Source: a virus
Lineage: Duplodnaviria; Caudoviricetes
Reading direction: 5' to 3' (one strand)
Length of the DNA stretch: 27,433 bases
Virus record (IMG/VR): IMGVR_UViG_3300012665_001197
Coordinates: 1-27,433 of that record
Below the pieces are notes generated by a model. It was given only the letters and a program-made list of their open reading frames with translations. It had not been told where the DNA came from and ran no database searches. Of this stretch, positions 2,219 to 12,549 are shown piece by piece (position 1 is the first letter of the stretch; each line of letters starts with the position of its first letter). Position numbers and translations under genes: made by a program.

Positions 2219-2761
2219 TTAGAAACTACGTGTGTATTGTAGACGCCATGCATCTTTTTCTTCATCGCCATATGAACGACTCCAACGAACTGCAACTTTG
2301 TCTTGTTTGGTCAAATCGTAACCAACTGCTGCATGAACACGTGTTGTTTGATATTCGTTTGCAGTATCAAATGCATTGCGATAACGACCACCAACATCAC
2401 CAGTGAAACCAGCAACCAATGGGAACTTAACGCCAGCATCAACTGCATAGTGGCTGAAGTGTGATGAACTTGAAACTTTTTCACCCAAACGACCACCAAC
2501 ATAGAAAGCACCGATAGATTGTTTTACACGAACTTCCAAACCTTGTGAAAGTGAACCACTACCAAATGCAGTTTGGCTGTTTTCCATTTTAAGGCTGTAG
2601 TCAGTAGAACCAACTTTAGTACCAACAACAATTGCTTCTTTAATGTTAGATGCTTTTGTTGAACGGTTAGTTTCATCAGAATATTCCAATGATGTATAAC
2701 CTTGTGCCATTGCTGAAACGCTCATGACCAAAGAGGCCAAAACTAAACTGATTTTCTTCAA
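2219..2761 (-). CDS. small outer-membrane beta-barrel (porin-like) protein
   Basis: Sec signal MKKISLVLASLVMSVSAMA|Q, alternating amphipathic strands, C-terminal beta-signal WRLQYTRSF. Confidence 0.75.
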   Translation of the reverse strand: MKKISLVLASLVMSVSAMAQGYTSLEYSDETNRSTKASNIKEAIVVGTKVGSTDYSLKMENSQTAFGSGSLSQGLEVRVKQSIGAFYVGGRLGEKVSSSSHFSHYAVDAGVKFPLVAGFTGDVGGRYRNAFDTANEYQTTRVHAAVGYDLTKQDKVAVRWSRSYGDEEKDAWRLQYTRSF

Positions 2762-2770
2762 AATTAACTC

Positions 2771-3349
2771 CTAGTTGTTAAACAATAGTGACTTAGATAT
2801 ATCTATGATATAAATTAGCCTTCTTTTATCAGTCTTATTATATGCACCATGCAATTCAGCATTATCAAATGCAAATAAGTCGGACCAATCCTGCTTTACA
2901 CCATCAACTTCCAGTGCAACATCACCTTCTGGTATGATTAATGGTATATGAATTCTTACTGTCTTGCGGGAACGATTCTCAATGTCCGCATGACTCTTAA
3001 TAACTCCTCCGGCATCCAATACACTATACCCACTACAACCCACATGACTAATATATTTTTGTGTTAGTGATGCAGCTGTTGGAAATATCATTCTCACTCT
3101 TGGTTGCAGAAAGAAATTGTGTTCTATGTTTTTTTCTGGTAATGAATATCGTAGGCCTTCTACTTTCCATACATCCTTTTCATGTTCATCCAAAATTGCT
3201 TCTGGATTGGATGCAGCATACGAAATACCACCACTAAAGGTTGTATCAAAATCTTTGTGGTATTCTAAAAATTCTTGTGTTAATTTAGGTGCCAATTCCA
3301 TTAACTCATCTGCTATGGAAATCTCACCTCTAGACCAAATTTTTTGCAT
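2771..3349 (-). CDS. aspartyl/asparaginyl beta-hydroxylase family Fe(II)/2OG oxygenase
   Basis: IKSHAD, RIHIPLIIP, FAFDN..LHGAYN...RRL; SD GGAG before ATG 3349. Confidence 0.8.
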   Translation of the reverse strand: MQKIWSRGEISIADELMELAPKLTQEFLEYHKDFDTTFSGGISYAASNPEAILDEHEKDVWKVEGLRYSLPEKNIEHNFFLQPRVRMIFPTAASLTQKYISHVGCSGYSVLDAGGVIKSHADIENRSRKTVRIHIPLIIPEGDVALEVDGVKQDWSDLFAFDNAELHGAYNKTDKRRLIYIIDISKSLLFNN

Positions 3350-3364
3350 TACTACTCCATTCAA

Positions 3365-3655
3365 TGGTTGGTTATTCTGTTACGAGGAAACCAACCGAAA
3401 CCCTAGTCAGCGTTTAGGCTGCCAATGCGAACTTTTCATCGTTTGCGTTTACTTGATTTAGTTTTAACATCTTCTCTGATGAGCTGTCCACTTCTGTACT
3501 ATTTACCCTGTCGAAACCAAGTACACCCCCATCAGAAGTGGTCTGCCTTTAACAGACTGTGGCACTTTATCGACTGCCAGCACTTTTGGTGGAGGTGGGG
3601 AGATTCGAACTCCCGTCCAGAATACATTTCTAGTCGCTTCATACAACCATAACAT
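3365..3655 (-). ncRNA. ssrA: circularly permuted (two-piece) tmRNA
   Basis: Acceptor piece ends GAC-GGGAG-TTCGAAT-CTCCC-CACCTCC-A-CCA (3617-3587). After a 56-nt spacer the coding piece starts GGGGGTG-TACTTGGTTTCGAC (3530). G3:U pair present; tag ORF 3446-3414 = ANDEKFALAA*. Outer ends approximate. Confidence 0.93.
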
Positions 3656-3692
3656 TATTTATTATTGTAACACAACCGCAATATCATGTCAA
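3656..3692 (-). promoter_or_regulatory. sigma70-type promoter for tmRNA with overlapping late-type motif
   Basis: TTGACA (3692-3687)-17 nt-TACAAT (3669-3664) with extended -10 TG; AATAAATA at 3663-3656. Confidence 0.8.
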
Positions 3693-4348
3693 CTGTTTTT
3701 GTGGTAATAATCAATTGCTTTAACTAGACCTTCAATGTGGTCTTGTGTTTTCTCTTTAAAAATCATTGGTTGTTCGTTGTCCACGGCCATAATAATTACC
3801 AAATCATCAATAGGCGTACCAACCAATTCTTCATACATCAATGCATATGCAGTACATTGCCAGAAATAATCCAAAATATCTTGACGTTTTTTAATCTTCT
3901 TTGATGTTTTAAAATCAATGACTGATAACTTACCTTCATACTCACCAATACAGTCAACACGGCCTGCCAATCCTAGTTGTGCAGACCACAATCCAACCTC
4001 TTGGTAGTGTATATTGTTGATTTTGTTTAGATATGGTTTGATTGATATGAACATCTCTTTGGCATCAGGCATAACATTACCTGGTGGTTTTGGTTCATTG
4101 TTCAAGTAATACTCACACATTGTGTGCATATTGGTACCACGTGATGTAGCTTGTCTGGAGATTTTGTTTGCAGTTTCTTCTCCAACTCTACGGCGCCATT
4201 CTAGGATGGACTGCTTTTTCTGAGCTCCCACCACTGTGGTCACTGATGGTAATTTTTTGCCATCTGGTGTGACATAATATCTTTTCCCATCAGGAAAAGT
4301 TTGAGATTCAATTTTTGGAATCTCTTTTGGTGGGCAATAAACGAACAT
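3689..4348 (-). CDS. PD-(D/E)XK exonuclease of T4-like phages
   Basis: LPSVTTV, RGT.MH, E......GRVDC, IDFKTS, Q..AYA motifs. Confidence 0.85.
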   Translation of the reverse strand: MFVYCPPKEIPKIESQTFPDGKRYYVTPDGKKLPSVTTVVGAQKKQSILEWRRRVGEETANKISRQATSRGTNMHTMCEYYLNNEPKPPGNVMPDAKEMFISIKPYLNKINNIHYQEVGLWSAQLGLAGRVDCIGEYEGKLSVIDFKTSKKIKKRQDILDYFWQCTAYALMYEELVGTPIDDLVIIMAVDNEQPMIFKEKTQDHIEGLVKAIDYYHKNS

Positions 4349-5865
4349 TATAATCCTAACTTTAAGTTTTTATATTCAAGGATAGTTTGATCCGCTTCTT
4401 CGATTTTTCTATTTAAAAAAGTTTTATCAAATGTTCCATCAATGATATCTTTCACATCAACTCCCATACCAACCAATTCAAATACATCATGGTTGATACT
4501 GACGCCTTTGTTTGCATTTCCATAAATTGATTTGCCTTTAGCAATACGCAATTCTTCTGTTTCTAAATTTAGTAATGTTGTGAGTTTTCTTGCAGTAAGA
4601 TAATTCATATACTTACTTTTCCACATCATCATATTACTATCATCATTATTGTATCTAGGATCATCATCGTTTGCCGATAAAACATACTCACCCTTAGTCA
4701 TTTCTGTATAACCCCATTTGTCATATTCTTTTTCGAATTCACTCAAACGACTTACAGAATTTTTTCTGATAACCAAAGGCCACCAATCCCAATTATCAAA
4801 GACTTCAAAATTTTGTTCCAACAAAATCTTCTGACTATTATAAACACTAGACAATGGTTCACCTGGTAATCCACAAATCATGCCTGTATATGTATAGACC
4901 GGTTTATATCTTTTCAACTCTCTAATGGCTGCAAATTGTCTTTCATTATCTAGTCCTTTACCAATTGCTTTCTTTGCTTCTGGATGAAAAGTTTCCAAAC
5001 CAAATGTGGCTGCAACCAAACCAGTATCAGCCAACATAGGTATCGTTTCTGGAAAGGCCTCAATCAAGTCTGCACGTAGAAAGGCTGTGTATGTAATTTT
5101 AACACCACTCTTTGCAATTGCTTCTGCAACATAATCCAATTTTACCACATTATCATTGAATGTATCATCATTAAACCAATAGTTATTGACACCAAACATT
5201 TCGTAGTTTCTACGCAATTCATCCGCTAGGTTATCAACATGACGAATGTAATCATTCTTCTTTTTACCCAATAATGGGAACGCACAGAAACGGCATCTGA
5301 AAATACAACCTCTACTAATTTCAATAGGCAAGAAATTGTTTTTGATTAAGTCGCTTTCCAACCATTTGATAGACAAGTCACTATCATCATTTTTATACGC
5401 CATTTCAGCATTAATAGAAAGTGTACCTTTGTATGGTACCCACTTCAAATCATCCAAACGTTTCTTGGTTAAGAATTTTAGATAGTGTAAGACTGCTTCT
5501 TCGGCATAACCCCAAAATACTCTATCGACCTGAGTTAAATCGACACCATCAATTGGTGTTTCATTCCCACCAATAAGTGTCTTTACATGGGGATATTTCT
5601 CTTTAATGTGTTTGAATAAATGATTTAATTTGTCAAATGCATAGATGAACGTAATACTGATACCAACAAACAAAGTTTTTGGGCCAATAAACCTAGCACA
5701 GATTGTTTCAATTTCTTCTTCTGTAAAATTACCAAAGTAATCAACAACCTCAAGGTTATAACCATGTGGTTCTAAAAATGTTCTCAATCTTGCTGCACCA
5801 GCTGGTCGACTAATTGTTCTAGTTCGTTCCATGCCGGTAAAAACAATACCATGTGTATCTGTCAT
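4348..5865 (-). CDS. radical SAM protein with N-terminal cobalamin-binding-like domain (class B type)
   Basis: EISRGCIFRCRFC, DDTF, GLETF, GLPGE; N-terminal P.G..RL..FL...G..LEVVD / VGIS / K...P.VK..IGG pattern. Confidence 0.85.
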   Translation of the reverse strand: MTDTHGIVFTGMERTRTISRPAGAARLRTFLEPHGYNLEVVDYFGNFTEEEIETICARFIGPKTLFVGISITFIYAFDKLNHLFKHIKEKYPHVKTLIGGNETPIDGVDLTQVDRVFWGYAEEAVLHYLKFLTKKRLDDLKWVPYKGTLSINAEMAYKNDDSDLSIKWLESDLIKNNFLPIEISRGCIFRCRFCAFPLLGKKKNDYIRHVDNLADELRRNYEMFGVNNYWFNDDTFNDNVVKLDYVAEAIAKSGVKITYTAFLRADLIEAFPETIPMLADTGLVAATFGLETFHPEAKKAIGKGLDNERQFAAIRELKRYKPVYTYTGMICGLPGEPLSSVYNSQKILLEQNFEVFDNWDWWPLVIRKNSVSRLSEFEKEYDKWGYTEMTKGEYVLSANDDDPRYNNDDSNMMMWKSKYMNYLTARKLTTLLNLETEELRIAKGKSIYGNANKGVSINHDVFELVGMGVDVKDIIDGTFDKTFLNRKIEEADQTILEYKNLKLGL

Positions 5866-5868
5866 AAT

Positions 5869-6663
5869 TTAATAGAGTTCAAAATCTCTGATTTTTTTAG
5901 TTACGTATTTTGCTCTGATGGCTTCGAAAAAATCAATATCTTCTTCCGTTAATTCGGGTTCATCAATTTTTTCTCTCATGCCTCTAACATAATTTAACAT
6001 CTGTTCAAAATCACCTTCATATTTAAAAAATTTGGTTACTTTCTTTGTATCATATGCATCCATGATAAGGTGATATCTATCCTCATCGGAATCATTTCTA
6101 ATTTGATGCCATTGATTGACCCAAAGAATCCAAACACCACCGTCAGCAGGCATATGTAAATTCATACCTTGACAAATATGTACACATTTTTCGTTTGTGA
6201 AAAGTGGTATGTGAATACGTGCCATATATTCTTCTTCTGTTGCATCTCTATGCACTAAACTTTTTGAGTGTGCCTTTAAACAGGTAATTCTAGCCCTTGT
6301 TGGATAAAATCCCATTTCACGTATGTCATCCATAACCTTTTTGATTTCACCAACATAAGCTTCAGTTGGTTTGTCGTGTTCTAATCCATGTGAAATGTTA
6401 AAGTGCTTGTAGGCTTTACAAATCAATTCTTCAGTTGGTAAAAATGATTCTAATGATTGTCCTTTTTCCAACTGAATTGCTTCCCATCCACCAGTCCATG
6501 TTGCTTCTTTGCATAGTATACTCCAACCACCAAAACCATTGTATTTTGGTGTTTCATATTCTTCACCTTGAATAACTTGGTCACCTAAAGTAAAAACACT
6601 ATCTCTCACTTCTTGTTTTAATTTTTCAATGTCCACTGTATAGTCTAATTTTTCGAAAAACAT
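5869..6663 (-). CDS. aspartyl/asparaginyl beta-hydroxylase family oxygenase
   Basis: RAR...L......VHRD, RIHIPL.TN, H.PADG, H...N....RYHL. Confidence 0.8.
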   Translation of the reverse strand: MFFEKLDYTVDIEKLKQEVRDSVFTLGDQVIQGEEYETPKYNGFGGWSILCKEATWTGGWEAIQLEKGQSLESFLPTEELICKAYKHFNISHGLEHDKPTEAYVGEIKKVMDDIREMGFYPTRARITCLKAHSKSLVHRDATEEEYMARIHIPLFTNEKCVHICQGMNLHMPADGGVWILWVNQWHQIRNDSDEDRYHLIMDAYDTKKVTKFFKYEGDFEQMLNYVRGMREKIDEPELTEEDIDFFEAIRAKYVTKKIRDFELY

Positions 6664-6673
6664 TTCTTATCCT

Positions 6674-7345
6674 TTATAAGTTTCCAGTTTCTTTTAGCAT
6701 ATCATACACTTGACCATAATCATAATATCTGGTTCTAAGTGCAAATGCCTTTCTGAGTTTTGCTTCGCCACCTAATGGTTCCACATTGTGTGGTACTCTT
6801 ACGTCCAACATATATGCTTCCATAGGTTGTGCAACAAAAGATCCAATTTCATGAACATCATCAAAAGAATATACCGCATCAACATATGTTATTTCTTCAC
6901 AGGTTGGCATATTCTGTTTTTCAGCCACAAACTCTTTAACCCTAGTTTTCAATTCTTCAACATTAACATTTTGGTCTACAATCGTTCCATCATCAACACC
7001 AAGGTGTCGGTCTTCTTCTGTTTTCCATGAGTTTGCTTGAGGTTTTGCCTTAAAGAAAACTGTTCTATAGTTTTGTGGGTCATAATAAAAATTGATTGTT
7101 GTTATAAAATCATTATCAACGTGTGGTAACAACAAACTATTAATTGACATTCTCGTCACCTGAAAATCTTTCCAGTATCTTTCGGGAATAACTTTATACA
7201 GTTTTTCTAATTCTGGTTCAGGTGTCCAAATAGTATTGTGTCTAACTCCCAATCCATATTTGCCTGCAAATGAATCTGCAATTCCTTGAGGAATTATGGT
7301 ATGCATCATATACTCATAATTGTGTTTTAGTTTAACGAACGACAT
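6674..7345 (-). CDS. putative Fe(II)/2OG (cupin-fold) oxygenase
   Basis: LLPHVD...INFY ... LDV.VPHNV ... R (HxD...H facial triad). Confidence 0.65.
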   Translation of the reverse strand: MSFVKLKHNYEYMMHTIIPQGIADSFAGKYGLGVRHNTIWTPEPELEKLYKVIPERYWKDFQVTRMSINSLLLPHVDNDFITTINFYYDPQNYRTVFFKAKPQANSWKTEEDRHLGVDDGTIVDQNVNVEELKTRVKEFVAEKQNMPTCEEITYVDAVYSFDDVHEIGSFVAQPMEAYMLDVRVPHNVEPLGGEAKLRKAFALRTRYYDYGQVYDMLKETGNL

Positions 7346-7862
7346 TATTGGTTTCCTTTAACATTTCAATTACGTCCTCATACTTATGAACAAAGGTTCC
7401 CAAAGTTATTGCTTTACGCAAATTAAATTCACCCTTAACGCCATGTATTTGACTTACATCAAGTAACCAAACTTCATAGTCTTTTGCCACAAAACTACCA
7501 ACTTCAATTAAATCATCTTCAAAGTATATATGACCATCGGTTTGATTCTCAACCTGTACAGTATTTGGTTTATCAACTTTTGGTTTGTAAAAGGTTGTTG
7601 TGCAACCTTCTGTTTGAAAGTAAAAATTTATTGATGAAATAATCTCGGTATCTGTATGTGGTGGGATTATACAATCAATTGTCATTACTGTCAAGTGGAA
7701 ATCCTGCCAATACCTTTTTGGCAAAACACCATAAATTTTTTCAGCCTCTGGTGACCATATCTTCTTATAGTCAATACCTTTACCATCAACTTTAAAAGTT
7801 TTTAATTGGTCGGTAATTGCATATAGTGGTTTTTCGAAAGATTTTTCAAGTTTGGTAAACAT
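7332..7862 (-). CDS. putative Fe(II)/2OG (cupin-fold) oxygenase, paralog of neighbour
   Basis: IPPHTD...INFY ... LDV.QIHGV ... RKA; TAATG overlap with upstream gene. Confidence 0.65.
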   Translation of the reverse strand: MFTKLEKSFEKPLYAITDQLKTFKVDGKGIDYKKIWSPEAEKIYGVLPKRYWQDFHLTVMTIDCIIPPHTDTEIISSINFYFQTEGCTTTFYKPKVDKPNTVQVENQTDGHIYFEDDLIEVGSFVAKDYEVWLLDVSQIHGVKGEFNLRKAITLGTFVHKYEDVIEMLKETNNVVR

Positions 7863-8566
7863 TATTTCCATTCTTTAATCTTTGACATACGACCTGCCCA
7901 AGATTTCAAAATTACCGTATTCTGTGCATTTTTATCTACCACTTTTCTCAGGTCTGTAGACAATGAAATGCGTAGGTCATCAGATTTGTTTTCATCAACA
8001 CCGTGTAAGACATAATTAGGGAAAAAAATCAAACGACCCTCAACTGGTTTGAATCTTCGTTCACGTAAATTTGGTGTGCTACTCAAAGTGTTATTTAACC
8101 AATCAATAGCATGTGCAGAATCAAACGCCACAAGGTCACCACAACCTTCTTTGGCCTTAATATAGTATGTTGCTGCAATTGCAGATTCAGTGTGACCATG
8201 CACCTCTAGGCGTTCTCCAGGTTCACGCACATTGACCCAACCCATAAAGTGTTCGCAACCACGAATGTTCAACATCCTCAACTGTGGAATATTCTGAACA
8301 ATTTTCTTGGTTACTATGTCTATAATTTCTTGTTTGAGTATATCTAGATTTGGACGGCTGTAGTCCCATATACTGTTGCTTGGGTCCTTATCTTTACCCA
8401 ATGCGATATCTTTACCAATACCATAAATTTCATCCAATAGAGTTTCATTGAATTGCTCATCAAATTTGGTTTGCACTTCCCAGATTGGACTTTGCCAAAA
8501 CATATTCTGTGCATTTTGATACCAATGATAGCGGTCCCTATCTTCTTTTGTCATAATATTTTGCAT
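7862..8566 (-). CDS. 2OG-Fe(II) oxygenase (TIGR02466-like)
   Basis: WVNV..PG....VHGH, YY, P.EG.LIFFP.Y..HGV..N.....RIS.S. Confidence 0.8.
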   Translation of the reverse strand: MQNIMTKEDRDRYHWYQNAQNMFWQSPIWEVQTKFDEQFNETLLDEIYGIGKDIALGKDKDPSNSIWDYSRPNLDILKQEIIDIVTKKIVQNIPQLRMLNIRGCEHFMGWVNVREPGERLEVHGHTESAIAATYYIKAKEGCGDLVAFDSAHAIDWLNNTLSSTPNLRERRFKPVEGRLIFFPNYVLHGVDENKSDDLRISLSTDLRKVVDKNAQNTVILKSWAGRMSKIKEWK

Positions 8567-8575
8567 AATAAAAAA

Positions 8576-8953
8576 TCAATAGTTTTGTTTTTCAAACCAT
8601 TCTTTAAATTCTCTTAGGTGATTCAGTTTCAACTCATATTCTTCATCAGTATAATCTTCATCTCTTGGTAAAGATATGAAATATTCATATTCTTCTTTCG
8701 GATTTCTCACTCTTTCTTCATTCCAACCTGGATCAGCAAAATTTATAATATGTTGATCCATCAGTTTATCTATAGTTTCTCTAAAATGATATGACATATA
8801 GAAAAACCTTTCTTTTTGTTCTTCCGTAAGACGGTTAATCCTTTCGATATGATTTTTTTTCATATAATTTGTTAGAACAAAAAAATCATATAAAATATTA
8901 TCACCTTCAAAATTTTTTATGGTTTGTTGGTATGTATAGCTATATTCTTTCAT
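8576..8953 (-). CDS. hypothetical protein in modification cluster
   Basis: ATGA overlap with upstream stop; helical, charged and aromatic-rich. Confidence 0.65.
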   Translation of the reverse strand: MKEYSYTYQQTIKNFEGDNILYDFFVLTNYMKKNHIERINRLTEEQKERFFYMSYHFRETIDKLMDQHIINFADPGWNEERVRNPKEEYEYFISLPRDEDYTDEEYELKLNHLREFKEWFEKQNY

Positions 8954-9243
8954 CTTTTGTCCAACCATATTTTATAATTTCGTACAAGTTCGTTGTCAAC
9001 ACCATCTCTTAATAATTTTGGTAAAAAGATAGATGATTTTAACAAACCATCACCGTCAAGGACCGCATGAACATCTTCAAAATCTGTTAGCAATTCATAG
9101 ACACGCTCTTTTTCTTCCTGCGTCATGTTATTAAATACAGTTAAACTAACAGTATTGTAAAAATTAGCTAAATGTTCATCAACCAAATCCCCAACAGGAT
9201 TCATTAAAACTTTAACCGGTCTTTTAGTGGAATACGTTGGCAT
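8950..9243 (-). CDS. hypothetical protein in modification cluster
   Basis: TGATG overlap with the Cys-rich gene stop. Confidence 0.65.
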   Translation of the reverse strand: MPTYSTKRPVKVLMNPVGDLVDEHLANFYNTVSLTVFNNMTQEEKERVYELLTDFEDVHAVLDGDGLLKSSIFLPKLLRDGVDNELVRNYKIWLDKR

Positions 9244-10265
9244 CAAACTACCTTTTTATTTGGTATAAATTTCTCAATAAAACGGCCTAGTTCGGCAATA
9301 AGTTTAAACATAACGAAAATTACAACAAGGCCCGCACCTTTTAGGAAACCAGGTTCTTTCTTACTTGGTCCAAACCAACGTTGCCATACACCAATAACTT
9401 TACAGATTGGTATACCAAATGCAAACATCATCTTACCTGTAAGACTACCCGTTTCTTTTTCGCCCATGATGTATGCCATTTCTTCAGCCCAAGGTGTTGC
9501 AATATCATGTGCCCATGTAATAGACCACTTCTTAGCAGCTTCACTGAATTCTTCATCTGACATCCAAGGCATCATCTTAGGACCTTTGCCGTCCATCCAA
9601 TCAACAACAATCTCAGCCCATGCACGATAACCATTGTAGATATCTGGATTGGTTTGTATCAATCTTTCACCAAATGCTTGGTCTGCCTCAAATATGTTTT
9701 TCTTCATTAAACCAAGGTCAAACAACTTGGTACAAATAATCTTAGAACAATTACAATTAATATTGAAACAGTTTTGGTTAGCATTACAGTTATATACTGG
9801 TGCTGTGGCCAATTGACAATTACCGGCTTGCAACCATTTGTTTCTATCACAATTTACACAATTTGCCAAAGCAGAACAATTTGCTGTTGCTGAACAATTA
9901 ACTGGAGTTGAACCAGTTTTAGTGTTTGTTGCAGTAGAACATTGTCCGGTTGATTGGGCATTACAATTTAGTGTTGCGCCGTTGTTGGAGTTGTTACAGT
10001 TGCCGGCATCATTTTTCTGATAGTATTTTAAACCACCACGGAATACATCTAAATTTGGTTGTGATGGTCTCAGTGGATTTGGTGGTGTCACAGCATTAGT
10101 ACCAGCTGGTACAACAGGCACAAGACCACTACAGTTGAGTGTAGTGGTACCGTCAGGTTTAAGATACGTGTTTATGAAATTGAAATCAACTGAGGTGTTG
10201 GTTGCTCCAACTTCTGCATTTATGTTTGAAACTCCAATCGCACTATTTTTATCTGGTGTTGCCAT
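9243..10265 (-). CDS. Asn-Cys-repeat protein with C-terminal KIICT domain; candidate substrate/precursor of neighbouring enzymes
   Basis: 13 Cys before residue 175, 12 of them as N-C dipeptides; C-terminal helical domain ending in hydrophobic segments. Confidence 0.75.
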   Translation of the reverse strand: MATPDKNSAIGVSNINAEVGATNTSVDFNFINTYLKPDGTTTLNCSGLVPVVPAGTNAVTPPNPLRPSQPNLDVFRGGLKYYQKNDAGNCNNSNNGATLNCNAQSTGQCSTATNTKTGSTPVNCSATANCSALANCVNCDRNKWLQAGNCQLATAPVYNCNANQNCFNINCNCSKIICTKLFDLGLMKKNIFEADQAFGERLIQTNPDIYNGYRAWAEIVVDWMDGKGPKMMPWMSDEEFSEAAKKWSITWAHDIATPWAEEMAYIMGEKETGSLTGKMMFAFGIPICKVIGVWQRWFGPSKKEPGFLKGAGLVVIFVMFKLIAELGRFIEKFIPNKKVV

Positions 10266-10294
10266 TTTTCTCTATCTTTAAAAGTTGTTATTGT

Positions 10295-10301
10295 TATTTA
10301 G
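10295..10301 (-). promoter_or_regulatory. late-promoter variant CTAAATA
   Basis: overlaps the rSAM stop codon, 30 nt upstream of ATG 10265. Confidence 0.5.
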
Positions 10302-11749
10302 GTTTCTAAACGAGATTTACCATACACCGCAACATCATCAACTGTACCAACAATTTCTTTAACCACCTTGATTGGTATGATTTTTTTCTGTTTTTCTTCT
10401 TCGTGTTTGAAAACGGTACCAAAAACATCTTGTCTATCAAGTGGCAACGTATCACTTTTAATGATTGATGGTGTGTAACCATTTGTTATCATAGTGAATG
10501 CTGCAGCAAACAAAGCCACATTATCTGAATATGCATTGGCACACGAAATGTCCCAAAATTTTTCGTCCAAGAACATACATGCACCTTTACACATATGCAA
10601 TACTGGACATTCTGGACATTCTTTACGATTAGACCAATGTGTGACAGATTTCAACTCAACATTTGAGTAGTCATCTAACGTGCCGCCATGATGTGATTCA
10701 CCGTTCTTTGATATTTCCAAAGAACTTACGTTTTGACAAGTCATTACGTTACCACGTAGGTCAACCGAAATGGTATGTTCGTCATCCATACCACATTTTT
10801 GGCCCAAATATTTAGATTCTATATGATTCAAAACACGATTTGAAAAATCTTGTATTTTACCCAATTGGCCTATAAAACCTATTTTAGTACCGTTGGCATA
10901 TAATTCACCAAAAGCACGTTGTCTAAAATCAAAATGTTCTTGTTTTGTAATTAGTGAGTTTGAAATACCTTCTTCATCATAGGCATCAACCAATGATCCT
11001 TCACCAAGTACAACATTTTCATCGCCAGTAAGATTTACAAACCAATCATAAATTTCTTTTCTACTTTGGTTTTTAGAATTCAACATAGCGTTAAAACTAA
11101 ATGGTTTACCTAGTCTTGTTTGCATACGATAGAAACCGATAATACGTTCTTTTTGTTCAGGATCATCAAATGGATCAGGACCACGAACAAATTGACCAGG
11201 ACCGTCATGTGAAATTGACACACCAAAATCCATCATCATTAACCAATCAATGATTTCATCTGTTAATATGGAACCGTTGGTGATAATACTAAACCTTGGT
11301 TTGGTTTTCCAATCCTTGAATTTCTCTGCAATGGCCTCTGCCAAAGGTTTCATGGTTTTCCAATAAACCAGTGGTTCACCACCCCAAAATTCAATTCTCA
11401 AACCAACATCTTCATCAAAATGCAAAACTTCCAACTTTTCCATAAAAGCATCGATATCTTTTTTGGATGTTTCCGGTTGACGCTCGACAAACTTTTGTGA
11501 ACAATAATCACACGAATAATTACAACTCAAACCCATTTGAATTTTTAAATGGCTGATTAATTTAGATTTTTTGAGTGGTCGATTTTTATCGAAAGCCTTA
11601 TAAGGCTTTTCCAAAACGTCCCATCTTTGTTCTTCTGGATATTCAAAAATGTCACCATTAGAATTTTTCAACACATTGGCCATGTTGTCATAGAAAAAAA
11701 CTTGTTTATCACCATCAGCAATTCTTGTGGCATGAATTTCAAAAATCAT
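10298..11749 (-). CDS. radical SAM/SPASM domain protein (peptide/protein maturase type)
   Basis: CNYSCDYC, FWGGEP, ITNG, SISHDG; SPASM motifs KCG...VDLRGNVMTC and CPECPVLHMCKGAC...C. Confidence 0.9.
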   Translation of the reverse strand: MIFEIHATRIADGDKQVFFYDNMANVLKNSNGDIFEYPEEQRWDVLEKPYKAFDKNRPLKKSKLISHLKIQMGLSCNYSCDYCSQKFVERQPETSKKDIDAFMEKLEVLHFDEDVGLRIEFWGGEPLVYWKTMKPLAEAIAEKFKDWKTKPRFSIITNGSILTDEIIDWLMMMDFGVSISHDGPGQFVRGPDPFDDPEQKERIIGFYRMQTRLGKPFSFNAMLNSKNQSRKEIYDWFVNLTGDENVVLGEGSLVDAYDEEGISNSLITKQEHFDFRQRAFGELYANGTKIGFIGQLGKIQDFSNRVLNHIESKYLGQKCGMDDEHTISVDLRGNVMTCQNVSSLEISKNGESHHGGTLDDYSNVELKSVTHWSNRKECPECPVLHMCKGACMFLDEKFWDISCANAYSDNVALFAAAFTMITNGYTPSIIKSDTLPLDRQDVFGTVFKHEEEKQKKIIPIKVVKEIVGTVDDVAVYGKSRLET

Positions 11750-11776
11750 TGTATTTCCTCTTAAATATTGAGTAAT

Positions 11777-11783
11777 TATTTAT
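11777..11783 (-). promoter_or_regulatory. late promoter ATAAATA
   Basis: intergenic between phoH stop and rSAM SD (GAGG). Confidence 0.6.
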
Positions 11784-11784
11784 C

Positions 11785-12549
11785 CTAATAACCAAGTTCT
11801 TCACAGGCCACGATCCATTGTTTTACTAGACTGGAACGAACGATATCGTCTGGAGTAAAGTAAATTTCTTGAAAAGATGGCATTTTACGTGCCACTTCCA
11901 GAAAACTATGGAATGCTGTTTGGTCTTTGTTACTTTTAATTAAATCTGTTTGTTTAAAATCACCTGAAAATATAATTTTAGACCTGTGTCCGACACGGGT
12001 AATAATTGTATTCACCTCTGACCAGTTTAAATTCTGGTTCTCATCTACAATAATGATAGCATCATCAATAGAAATACCACGTATAGCAGTAGTTGATATG
12101 AATCGAACATGACCTTGTTCCTTTAATCTGTCCCACGCATCAGAACGGCCAAACAAAGTGGTCGCAATCTCTTTATAAGGCAGTTCATAAATTTCTTGTT
12201 TCTCATCCAGATTACCTGGTAGATAACCAACATCACGTAATTGAACAAGAGAACGCACAACTACCACTTGTTTGAATGAATTGGATTTATCCAATACTTC
12301 TTCTAGTGCCTTGTATAGTGCCAAAAAAGTTTTGCCTACTCCAGGACTACCAAATAGTCCCATAAAGTAGGCACCGCCTTTATACATTTCAAAAAATAAT
12401 CTTTGATTCTCCGTTAATGGTTCAAAGGTTTTTAGATGGTCCGGTTTAATCTTCAATGAATTACTTACTGCTGGTTGATGCCTAGTCTTTTGTTCATCAT
12501 CCTGTAATTGTTCCGCTGCGTATCTGGCTGTTGTTTTTTTTGTAACCAT
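11785..12549 (-). CDS. phoH: PhoH-family protein
   Basis: GSPGVGKTFLA Walker A, VRS, GYLPG, RG.SIDDA.IIVDE.QN, TRVG..SKIIF.GD..Q.DL, DIVRS.LVK. Confidence 0.93.
   Translation of the reverse strand: MVTKKTTARYAAEQLQDDEQKTRHQPAVSNSLKIKPDHLKTFEPLTENQRLFFEMYKGGAYFMGLFGSPGVGKTFLALYKALEEVLDKSNSFKQVVVVRSLVQLRDVGYLPGNLDEKQEIYELPYKEIATTLFGRSDAWDRLKEQGHVRFISTTAIRGISIDDAIIIVDENQNLNWSEVNTIITRVGHRSKIIFSGDFKQTDLIKSNKDQTAFHSFLEVARKMPSFQEIYFTPDDIVRSSLVKQWIVACEELGY

Follow-up and report, generated by a model that had tools for sequence, protein, structure and literature searches.

The radical SAM/SPASM enzyme encoded in this window (the whole 27,433-nt stretch of viral DNA that was analysed) likely makes Cys-to-Asn thioether cross-links in the adjoining Asn-Cys protein, probably a fibre-tip part or small adhesin of the virion. 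We hold this reading, which derives from sequence comparisons, with moderate confidence. Both genes belong to a nine-gene block, an island that is optional and lies between phoH and an exonuclease gene. The features of the island are as follows:

11776–11783, minus strand: late-promoter-like GATAAATA, just inside the left island end
10298–11749, minus strand: radical SAM/SPASM maturase, 483 aa (PF04055, E 4.5e-10; phrog_1802, E 9e-63)
10294–10301, minus strand: late-promoter-like CCTAAATA, overlapping the SPASM stop codon
10017–10265, minus strand: Asn-Cys protein, N-terminal cap, aa 1-83, whose first 20-27 residues are common with Gly-rich and propeller phage proteins
9744–10016, minus strand: Asn-Cys core, aa 84-174, predicted substrate (from composition and residue preference)
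9243–9743, minus strand: all-helical C-terminal "KIIC" domain, aa 175-340, a module that is mobile among phage proteins
8950–9243, minus strand: 97-aa ORF of a small family that follows KIIC-domain genes (profile E 2e-20)
8576–8953, minus strand: 125-aa ORF, a paralogue within that KIIC-following family (E 9e-7)
7862–8566, minus strand: 2OG-Fe(II) oxygenase, PF13759/TIGR02466 type (PF13759, E 1e-16, 61.7 against a cut-off of 27)
7332–7862, minus strand: probable 2OG-Fe(II) oxygenase, 176 aa, without a library match (invariant H69, D71, N79, H140, R149)
6674–7345, minus strand: 223-aa paralogue of the 176-aa ORF (40% identity), recognised by motif only
5869–6663, minus strand: Asp/Asn beta-hydroxylase-family oxygenase (PF05118, E 1e-9, 38.8 against a cut-off of 22.6)
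4348–5865, minus strand: cobalamin-type radical SAM enzyme, accessory, with a radical SAM core found by profile

The ORFs, junctions, and composition were rechecked, and the nine genes (4348–11749, all on the minus strand), their overlaps, and the Asn-Cys protein of the original prediction are all real. The start/stop overlaps TGATG at 9243, ATGA at 8953, and TAATG at 7862 are as stated there, the remaining intergenic spacings are 9, -14, 10, and 3 nt, and the gap between the SPASM gene and the Cys-rich gene is 32 nt. The packing and co-orientation are unremarkable, because a TAATG overlap also joins the B12 gene to the exonuclease gene and every phage gene scanned in the window lies on the minus strand. 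The block is an exact island from phoH to the exonuclease gene in an uncultured T4-like phage, and the boundaries first proposed for it are its natural ends. The phoH-exonuclease site is empty in 30 of 50 close relatives, carries fibre or adhesin-type genes in more distant ones, and gains or loses the nine genes as one unit.

The SPASM enzyme carries the radical SAM core motif CxxxCxxC, with conserved cysteines at positions 76, 80, and 83, and its PF04055 match is above the cut-off. Seven auxiliary cysteines (319, 338, 378, 381, 387, 391, and 403) are invariant across 158-162 aligned sequences, a set that matches the thioether-forming pattern of CteB; the CteB entries 5wgg and 5why are among the nearest solved sequences (E 7e-12). 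The Pfam SPASM model itself did not match the 483-aa enzyme. Alignments to PDB sequences begin at residue 47-57, leaving about 60 N-terminal residues, the place for a possible RRE, unmatched. The best 25 of the 45 NCBIfam matches all fell far under their cut-offs (top match PapB, NF047865, 80.6 bits against 340; TIGR04463, 47.5 against 525; TIGR03906, 69.7 against 453) and were spread over PapB, QhpD-type, anSME, and cyclophane models. This spread, with no curated family cut-off reached, favours a reading in which the enzyme acts on the same protein by other chemistry, such as alpha-thioether or thiomorpholinone rings, epimerisation, Cys oxidation, or metal or Fe-S loading, whereas the seven-Cys auxiliary set argues against it.

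The composition of the predicted substrate bears on the same choice. The 91-residue core (residues 84-174 of ORF 9243–10265) contains 22 Asn and 12 Cys, arranged in 11 Asn-Cys pairs, a number reached by none of 20,000 shuffles of the core. Across this and the corresponding cores at other loci (ladders), the residue preceding Cys is Asn, Ala, Gln, or Asp in 847 of 858 cases, compared with 50% of the background, while Thr, Ser, or Gly takes that position in 2 of 858, compared with 28%. NxxcB, the auxiliary-cluster radical SAM enzyme of a streptococcal RaS-RiPP, joins Cys-S to the C-beta of Asn in its substrate NxxcA and is reported to tolerate Ala, Gln, and Asp as acceptors (PMC9389541). The acceptor set of NxxcB is thus the set of residues found before Cys in the phage ladders, and this strict preference is a second point against other chemistry. 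The spacing of the ladder cysteines varies (peaks at 2, 3, and 5), and a fixed CxxxD/E motif is absent, which speaks for other chemistry; overall, we consider that alternative unlikely. The bias at the preceding position could also be structural rather than catalytic. An EGF-type AspH consensus occurred in just 2 of 58 cores and was dropped. NxxcA differs in being a short peptide with an NxxC motif, whereas the phage protein has 11-12 adjacent Asn-Cys pairs, and the comparison implies no orthology.

The enzyme and the ladder travel together, as the original prediction implied. With at least 3.5 kb of upstream flank, a ladder was found near the SPASM gene in all 78 viral loci and in 53 of 55 prokaryote-genome loci, compared with 0.09 matches per 8 kb in a minus-strand control. 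These counts are not independent, because the loci are related and collapse to 26 clusters at 70% identity; at that level, 22 of 24 informative clusters have a ladder, and in the two exceptions it is shorter or lies farther away. The pairing is maintained in T4-like, siphovirus-like, and prophage contexts, and in phages RSP15, JWF, and RP12.

The original prediction considered the substrate a possible virion or receptor-binding component, and genomic context favours this. The ladder of cultured phages and prophages usually stands at the end of a tail-fibre-type protein. In many genome loci and in JWF, long fibre-type proteins whose N-termini are unrelated carry it at the C-terminus; in JWF, it terminates the tail fibre immediately before a Hint domain. 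A fibre gene with an S74 chaperone lies upstream in loci L027, L031, L044, L110, and L111, and in L031, L110, and L111 the ladder is a small separate protein encoded directly after that fibre. In this window, a fibre gene adjoining the Asn-Cys gene is absent. The window gene lies away from the structural genes, beside phoH, and small ladder forms of 131-151 aa exist (L027, L031, L110, L111, L395, and L420; the short L027 form had no tblastn match among annotated phages), so the product might instead be a released RiPP-like peptide, with the cap as leader and the core freed from the C-terminal domain, serving superinfection exclusion, metal binding, or competition. This seems quite improbable, given the ladders that end long fibre-type proteins, the alternation of the phoH-exonuclease site with fibre-type genes, and the lack of any protease or transporter in library profile searches of the island ORFs.

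The N-terminal 174 residues of the Asn-Cys protein gave a poor predicted model (pLDDT 50), with three short low-confidence helices in the cap. Searches with this model were uninformative and returned no PDB fold or meaningful sequence match; there was no notable PHROG match, and profile library searches with the whole protein found no family. The start of the cap is shared with 14 non-ladder matches among 3,829 sequences (E 4e-6 to 6e-3).

The helical C-terminal domain is not known to have been described before. It is represented by more than 1,500 sequence clusters, occurs on many phage proteins without a SPASM enzyme, and is dispensable in other cassettes. Comparison of its fold with the PDB gave nothing clear (best Foldseek E 0.45; best VIA Z 6.2, a helical bundle), and matches in BFVD were to uncharacterised phage proteins only. 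The Hint fold consists of beta-strands, and the all-helical predicted model, if right, would exclude a Hint identity. A CFI-box ORF behind one KIIC gene gave rise to the idea that the domain is a CFI-box-CTERM, which was not supported: there was no NF041770 match, and no link emerged from hhalign with a shallow CFI profile. A hydropathy of 1.6 or more was reached by 12 of 30 sequences, and a membrane anchor is not established. ORFs 8950–9243 and 8576–8953, originally placed in the modification pathway, go with the KIIC domain and not with the enzyme; a complex prediction for the domain and the 97-aa ORF scored 0.00, which counts neither for nor against. The domain and its two small partners may form an assembly or maturation module, probably absent from the mature tip, that would occupy the position where other fibres have the Hint domain.

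Of the four Fe/2OG oxygenases first proposed, ORFs 7862–8566 and 5869–6663 have library support, the latter also matching PDB 7v4f ("Beta-hydroxylase", E 8e-6), and ORFs 7332–7862 and 6674–7345 are recognised by motif only. The H-x-D...H...R motif of the latter two is invariant in 24 sequences of 17-51% identity; neither had a significant Pfam or PDB match, and the nearest named Atlas clusters (0.89 and 0.88) are under the bar. The B12 enzyme scored 30.7 bits against PF02310, below the Pfam cut-off of 32.1, and 94.5 against a cut-off of 600 with the best NCBIfam model; the RiPP C-methyltransferase model TIGR03975 gave 39 bits against 282. As a weaker inference, the oxygenases would hydroxylate, and the B12 enzyme methylate, the Asn-Cys protein, as optional tailoring that alters host binding or stability. 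The SPASM gene lies upstream in all 28 loci of close oxygenase homologues, and all 17 of close B12 homologues, that have enough flank; PF13759-type oxygenases accompany it in 23 of 80 genome loci, and B12 enzymes joined ladder cassettes twice, from separate clades. These last two observations, and the movement of the nine genes as one unit, argue against co-travelling accessory enzymes that act on other targets, such as host envelope lipids, sugars, or small molecules. That alternative, which is compatible with the cross-linking reading, is nonetheless a substantial possibility, somewhat short of even. B12 relatives at 29-53% identity lie within enzyme islands, with a ladder in 0 of 49 loci, a full-length SPASM homologue in 0 of 39 records searched whole, and a SPASM gene in 0 of 4 near-complete records. 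A scan of 45 out of 139 ORFs found these relatives beside desaturases, TauD and AspH-type oxygenases, SDRs, and an aminotransferase, and the entry of desaturase, sulfotransferase, and Trp-halogenase genes into ladder cassettes points the same way. The B12 enzyme itself occurs in 21 of 57 viral loci and 0 of 80 genome loci. Among the genome loci, 1 of 80 has the 176-aa and 264-aa oxygenase types, and relatives of both types are also found in ladder-free enzyme islands. For the B12 family at 29-53% identity, homologues therefore do exist independently of any Cys-rich ORF, the outcome named beforehand as refuting the original prediction. The single dedicated nine-gene pathway first envisaged is thus only partly supported: the SPASM-ladder pairing stands, and a place in it for the two small ORFs and for the B12 family is not supported.

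Taken together with the promoter-like sites, these data suggest how the system might work. The T4 late promoter consensus is TATAAATA. TAAATA lies upstream of the SPASM gene in 16 of 52 distinct loci, where 6.6 would be expected, and of the Asn-Cys gene in 34 of 54, where 7.6 would be; the latter count is partly confounded by the TAA stop. One freshwater RNA run matched 0.16 of words, in contigs only, and gave no evidence of transcription. Expression would be late, from the TAAATA sites; an auxiliary Fe-S cluster would bind the substrate Cys at its one open site, the SAM radical would take a hydrogen from Asn, probably at C-beta, and the resulting cross-links would stiffen an otherwise poorly ordered core. 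More tentatively, and with rather less than an even chance of being right as a whole, phages may use RiPP chemistry for interchangeable host-binding tips, in which the SPASM enzyme staples the ladder, the oxygenases and the B12 methylase decorate it, a self-removing helical C-terminal domain releases the mature part, and the kit swaps at one slot with Gly-rich adhesins.

If the cross-linking reading is true, phrog_1802, a common phage "radical SAM domain protein" family, would gain a function, and a single maturase would process about a dozen Asn-Cys sites in one protein. Part of the phage host-recognition apparatus would then be a post-translationally cross-linked polymer, unreadable from sequence and beyond structure predictors. 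The cultured carriers, Achromobacter phage JWF and Ralstonia phage RSP15, make it directly testable, and the empty and filled phoH-exonuclease sites provide a natural experiment on phages that carry or lack the kit.

Cys-Asn cross-link chemistry is known from bacterial peptides, with no viral description in the literature searched. No phage example of such cross-linking appeared in that literature, which comprised mostly non-subscription main texts, and the CrpC Cys-rich set could include viral cases. PMC12801897 names a radical SAM maturase only as one of several "antibiotic synthesis genes". CrpC/CrpA and QhpD/QhpC, in which SPASM enzymes cross-link whole proteins through ranthionine links (PMC13692751), resemble the present pair in that a SPASM enzyme adjoins a Cys-rich protein and the target is a protein rather than a peptide. 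They differ in being archaeal or bacterial, not viral, and in their acceptor residues, and the TIGR04463 and TIGR03906 scores are far under cut-off; the word "phage" has 0 occurrences in the main text of that paper. PapB and CteB/SCIFF are the best curated and near-best structural sequence matches of the SPASM enzyme, but the scores (80.6 against 340 and 54.1 against 425) reflect mostly the radical SAM core, and there is no CxxxD/E precursor here. The polytheonamide tailoring enzymes PoyB, PoyC, and PoyI combine B12 radical SAM and Fe/2OG hydroxylase activities beside an Asn-rich substrate, a combination like that of the island; however, no nitrile-hydratase-type leader was seen here, and TIGR03975 is far from its cut-off. 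The gp38-type adhesin of S16 (PDB 6F45) is described as having a three-helix attachment domain with three Trp and a polyglycine sandwich (PMC6851490). No sequence or fold match to gp38/6F45 was found in searches that were uninformative at a model pLDDT of 50. The likeness to the gp37-gp38 tip lies in the position of the small separate protein in L031, L110, and L111, directly behind a fibre gene with a chaperone, and in a cap shared with Gly-rich proteins, whereas the window cap (aa 1-83) lacks Trp and an Asn-Cys core stands in place of the polyglycine sandwich.

The nine ORFs of the original prediction, with their start/stop overlaps, were present as described, on the minus strand between phoH and an exonuclease gene (window 4348..11783):

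10298-11749 (-), radical SAM protein with a SPASM region (SPASM enzyme)
9243-10265 (-), Asn-Cys protein; its C-terminal KIIC domain spans 9243-9743
8950-9243 (-), small ORF
8576-8953 (-), small ORF
7862-8566 (-), 234-aa type oxygenase (PF13759)
7332-7862 (-), 176-aa type oxygenase
6674-7345 (-), paralogue of the 176-aa type
5869-6663 (-), 264-aa type oxygenase (PF05118)
4348-5865 (-), B12 enzyme

Relatives were collected by a PhoH search (best 80 of 127 loci). In the group at or above 83% identity (50 loci), phoH lay 4-19 nt from the exonuclease gene in 30 (empty site), a SPASM cassette was present in 19, and a capped FG-GAP propeller gene in 1; an RNA-library contig of a relative contained the identical empty join, window 4340 to 11836. 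Other inserts occupied the site in 19 of the 30 more distant relatives. Eleven were examined: five matched PHROG tail-fibre families (loci L432, L435, L437, L448, and L449, the last as a minor tail protein), one (L446) encoded a gp53-like fibre end and a tail-fibre chaperone, two carried lysozyme-type or PAAR genes, and three carried small unnamed proteins of similar look. The empty, filled, and alternatively filled sites thus establish the predicted coordinates as a natural unit of gain and loss, in a slot that often houses fibre or adhesin-type genes. The GC content of the island is 34%, versus 38% for the rest of the window. A second cassette type, with a short Asn-Cys protein, a SPASM gene, PF13759 oxygenases, a Trp-halogenase-like gene, and a B12 enzyme of a different clade, was found in L395:3277-10777, L420:9755-16645, and L027, and in L395 and L420 it is located at the identical phoH-exonuclease site.

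ORF 10298-11749 was confirmed as a radical SAM protein by matches to PF04055 and phrog_1802 (E 9e-63), and seven additional Cys residues are invariant across all 158-162 aligned sequences. Its predicted pairing with the Asn-Cys protein was borne out by co-occurrence. Within -3.5/+4.5 kb of the enzyme, an Asn-Cys repeat ladder was found in 78/78 IMG/VR loci and in 63/80 GTDB loci (best 80 of 207, 35-69% identity), rising to 53/55 for GTDB loci with at least 3.5 kb upstream, compared to 0.09 hits per 8 kb in the minus-strand control. In the two true GTDB misses, a Cys-rich tail is present but does not satisfy the ladder pattern, and the remaining 15 each have <2.4 kb upstream. Clustering of the enzymes at 70% identity gave 26 clusters, of which 24 were informative and 22 ladder-positive. 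The exceptions were two Ralstonia phages: RSP15, with a side tail fibre that terminates in NTNCQCGN, and RP12 (NC_041911; 26% identity), with a 65-aa unannotated ORF (L082:2960-3157) 4.9 kb upstream that ends in a NCNCNCAC ladder and is flanked by virion structural genes on one side and three radical SAM genes on the other. Enzyme and ladder are, in these loci, inseparable. Immediately preceding the SPASM gene in 50/80 GTDB loci is a ~280-aa unnamed protein without a Pfam or PHROG match (L181:2866-3708 family), a candidate maturase helper.

The Asn-Cys protein consists of a cap (aa 1-83), a core (aa 84-174), and the C-terminal domain starting KIIC. The core contains 22 Asn, 12 Cys, and 11 Asn-Cys pairs, a number reached in 0/20,000 shuffles. 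Since the N-termini of the putative substrates differ, the ladder itself is the common element. In Achromobacter phage JWF, the ladder forms the end of tail protein gp028, directly followed by a Hint domain. An S74-chaperone fibre gene lies upstream in L027, L031, L044, L110, and L111, and adjoins the small Asn-Cys gene in L031, L110, and L111. The resemblance of the putative substrate to a fibre-tip adhesin is one of context.

The KIIC domain was modeled with high confidence (pLDDT 90.6) as a six-helix fold, for which no clear solved relative was found. A profile search returned 1,517 clusters; 150 were listed, 14 were dropped, and in the 136 with an intact start the domain was always C-terminal, preceded by a Gly-rich linker (93), a ladder (12), or other sequence (31). 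No SPASM gene was present in 39 of the 50 KIIC loci examined (L213-L262). The small ORF family follows the domain both with and without a SPASM gene: window ORFs 8950-9243 (E 2e-20) and 8576-8953 (E 9e-7) are members, and the profile matched 11 small ORFs from SPASM-free loci (E <0.01). KIIC-free cassettes with short Asn-Cys proteins occur in L027, L031, L110, L111, L395, and L420. Together, the KIIC domain and both small ORFs form a module separate from the SPASM enzyme, and the single nine-gene pathway originally proposed is not supported, as these ORFs track the KIIC domain. Positionally equivalent to Hint domains, the KIIC domain may be a removable assembly module. Phage proteins bearing this undescribed domain (P0128-P0274) include baseplate-, fibre-, and gp5-like ones, and a small partner ORF often follows; a stand-alone CFI-box-CTERM ORF (NF041770, E 7.5e-12) and related ORFs lie directly behind KIIC genes at L223:1261-1587, L218:4507-4929, and L259:1051-1467.

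Pfam families were assigned to two of the four oxygenases. The remaining pair, paralogous to each other, gave no significant library or PDB match but share an H-x-D...N...H...R set that is invariant in 24 sequences (17-51% identity). In the B12 enzyme, a radical SAM core was recognized, along with a B12-binding match that falls just below cut-off. Of 57 viral loci whose downstream flank is 7 kb or longer, 56 had the 176-aa type by tblastn, 56 the 264-aa type, 51 the 234-aa type, and 21 the B12 enzyme. At the same 80 GTDB loci (best 80 of 207), profile searches detected the 234-aa type at 23, the other two types at 1, and the B12 enzyme at 0. Close homologues are linked to the cassette: a SPASM gene was present at all 17 (of 25) loci of the B12 enzyme that extend 6 kb or more upstream and at all 28 (of 40) loci of the 264-aa oxygenase that extend 4.7 kb or more, whereas B12 relatives of 29-53% identity had a ladder at 0/49 loci. 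Whole-record searches of 39 of the latter gave one weak partial SPASM match, and none in 4 near-complete records; their neighbours are desaturases, AspH-/TauD-type oxygenases, SDRs, and other radical SAM genes. In a tree of 62 sequences (FastTree, midpoint root), cassette-borne B12 enzymes fall into two separate well-supported clades, a pattern that fits their having been recruited repeatedly out of a large pool of phage enzymes. These tailoring enzymes are thus accessory, with the Asn-Cys protein as a candidate target. Large-phage enzyme islands with B12-type radical SAM and fatty-acid desaturase genes (L323, L330, L337, L341, L346, L360, and L361) also encode AspH/TauD/Rieske oxygenases, SDRs, an aminotransferase, and a methyltransferase; a peptide substrate is not evident in them. 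Outside the island, window 2771-3364 (-) encodes a fifth AspH-family oxygenase (PF05118, E 4e-13), a homologue of which lies between the B12 and exonuclease genes in L006, L011, L016, L018, and L019.

The window, a 27.4-kb fragment of ~15% completeness, derives from a T4-like phage and encodes a gp59 helicase loader, late-promoter regulator, PhoH, and exonuclease. A permuted two-piece tmRNA of betaproteobacterial type (window 3349-3706 (-); RF01850, 130 bits versus 84; RF04321, 118 bits) lies immediately downstream of the exonuclease gene, and genome-borne SPASM-enzyme homologues are mostly from Burkholderiales (e.g., Limnohabitans, Polynucleobacter, Burkholderia); together, these suggest that a betaproteobacterial host is likely. 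A 180-aa ORF (2219-2761 (-)), without a Pfam or PHROG match, starts like a signal peptide and ends in a porin-like C-terminal Phe, as judged by eye. TAAATA, a motif that often takes in the preceding stop codon, occurs upstream of the Asn-Cys gene in 34/54 loci (7.6 expected) and of the SPASM enzyme in 16/52 (6.6 expected), with no such enrichment ahead of the downstream cassette genes, a distribution that fits, and does not prove, late expression from these sites.

In 58 cores, the residue preceding Cys was Asn in 677 of 858 cases, Ala in 76, Gln in 66, and Asp in 28; Thr/Ser/Gly make up 28% of the background, yet precede Cys in 2/858, and the residue after Cys is unrestricted. NxxcB joins Cys-S to the Asn C-beta, with Ala, Gln, and Asp tolerated (PMC9389541), and CrpC and QhpD are examples of SPASM enzymes acting as cross-linkers of whole proteins (PMC13692751). 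Taken with these precedents, the pre-Cys residue set would make Cys-Asn thioethers the favoured product; the bias may also have a structural cause. Literature searches found no phage example of such a modification system. Curated maturase models all scored far under cut-off against the SPASM enzyme (best, PapB, 80.6 versus 340). The enzyme stands outside every curated family, while its manner of working appears like that of the ranthipeptide and protein-thioether maturases.
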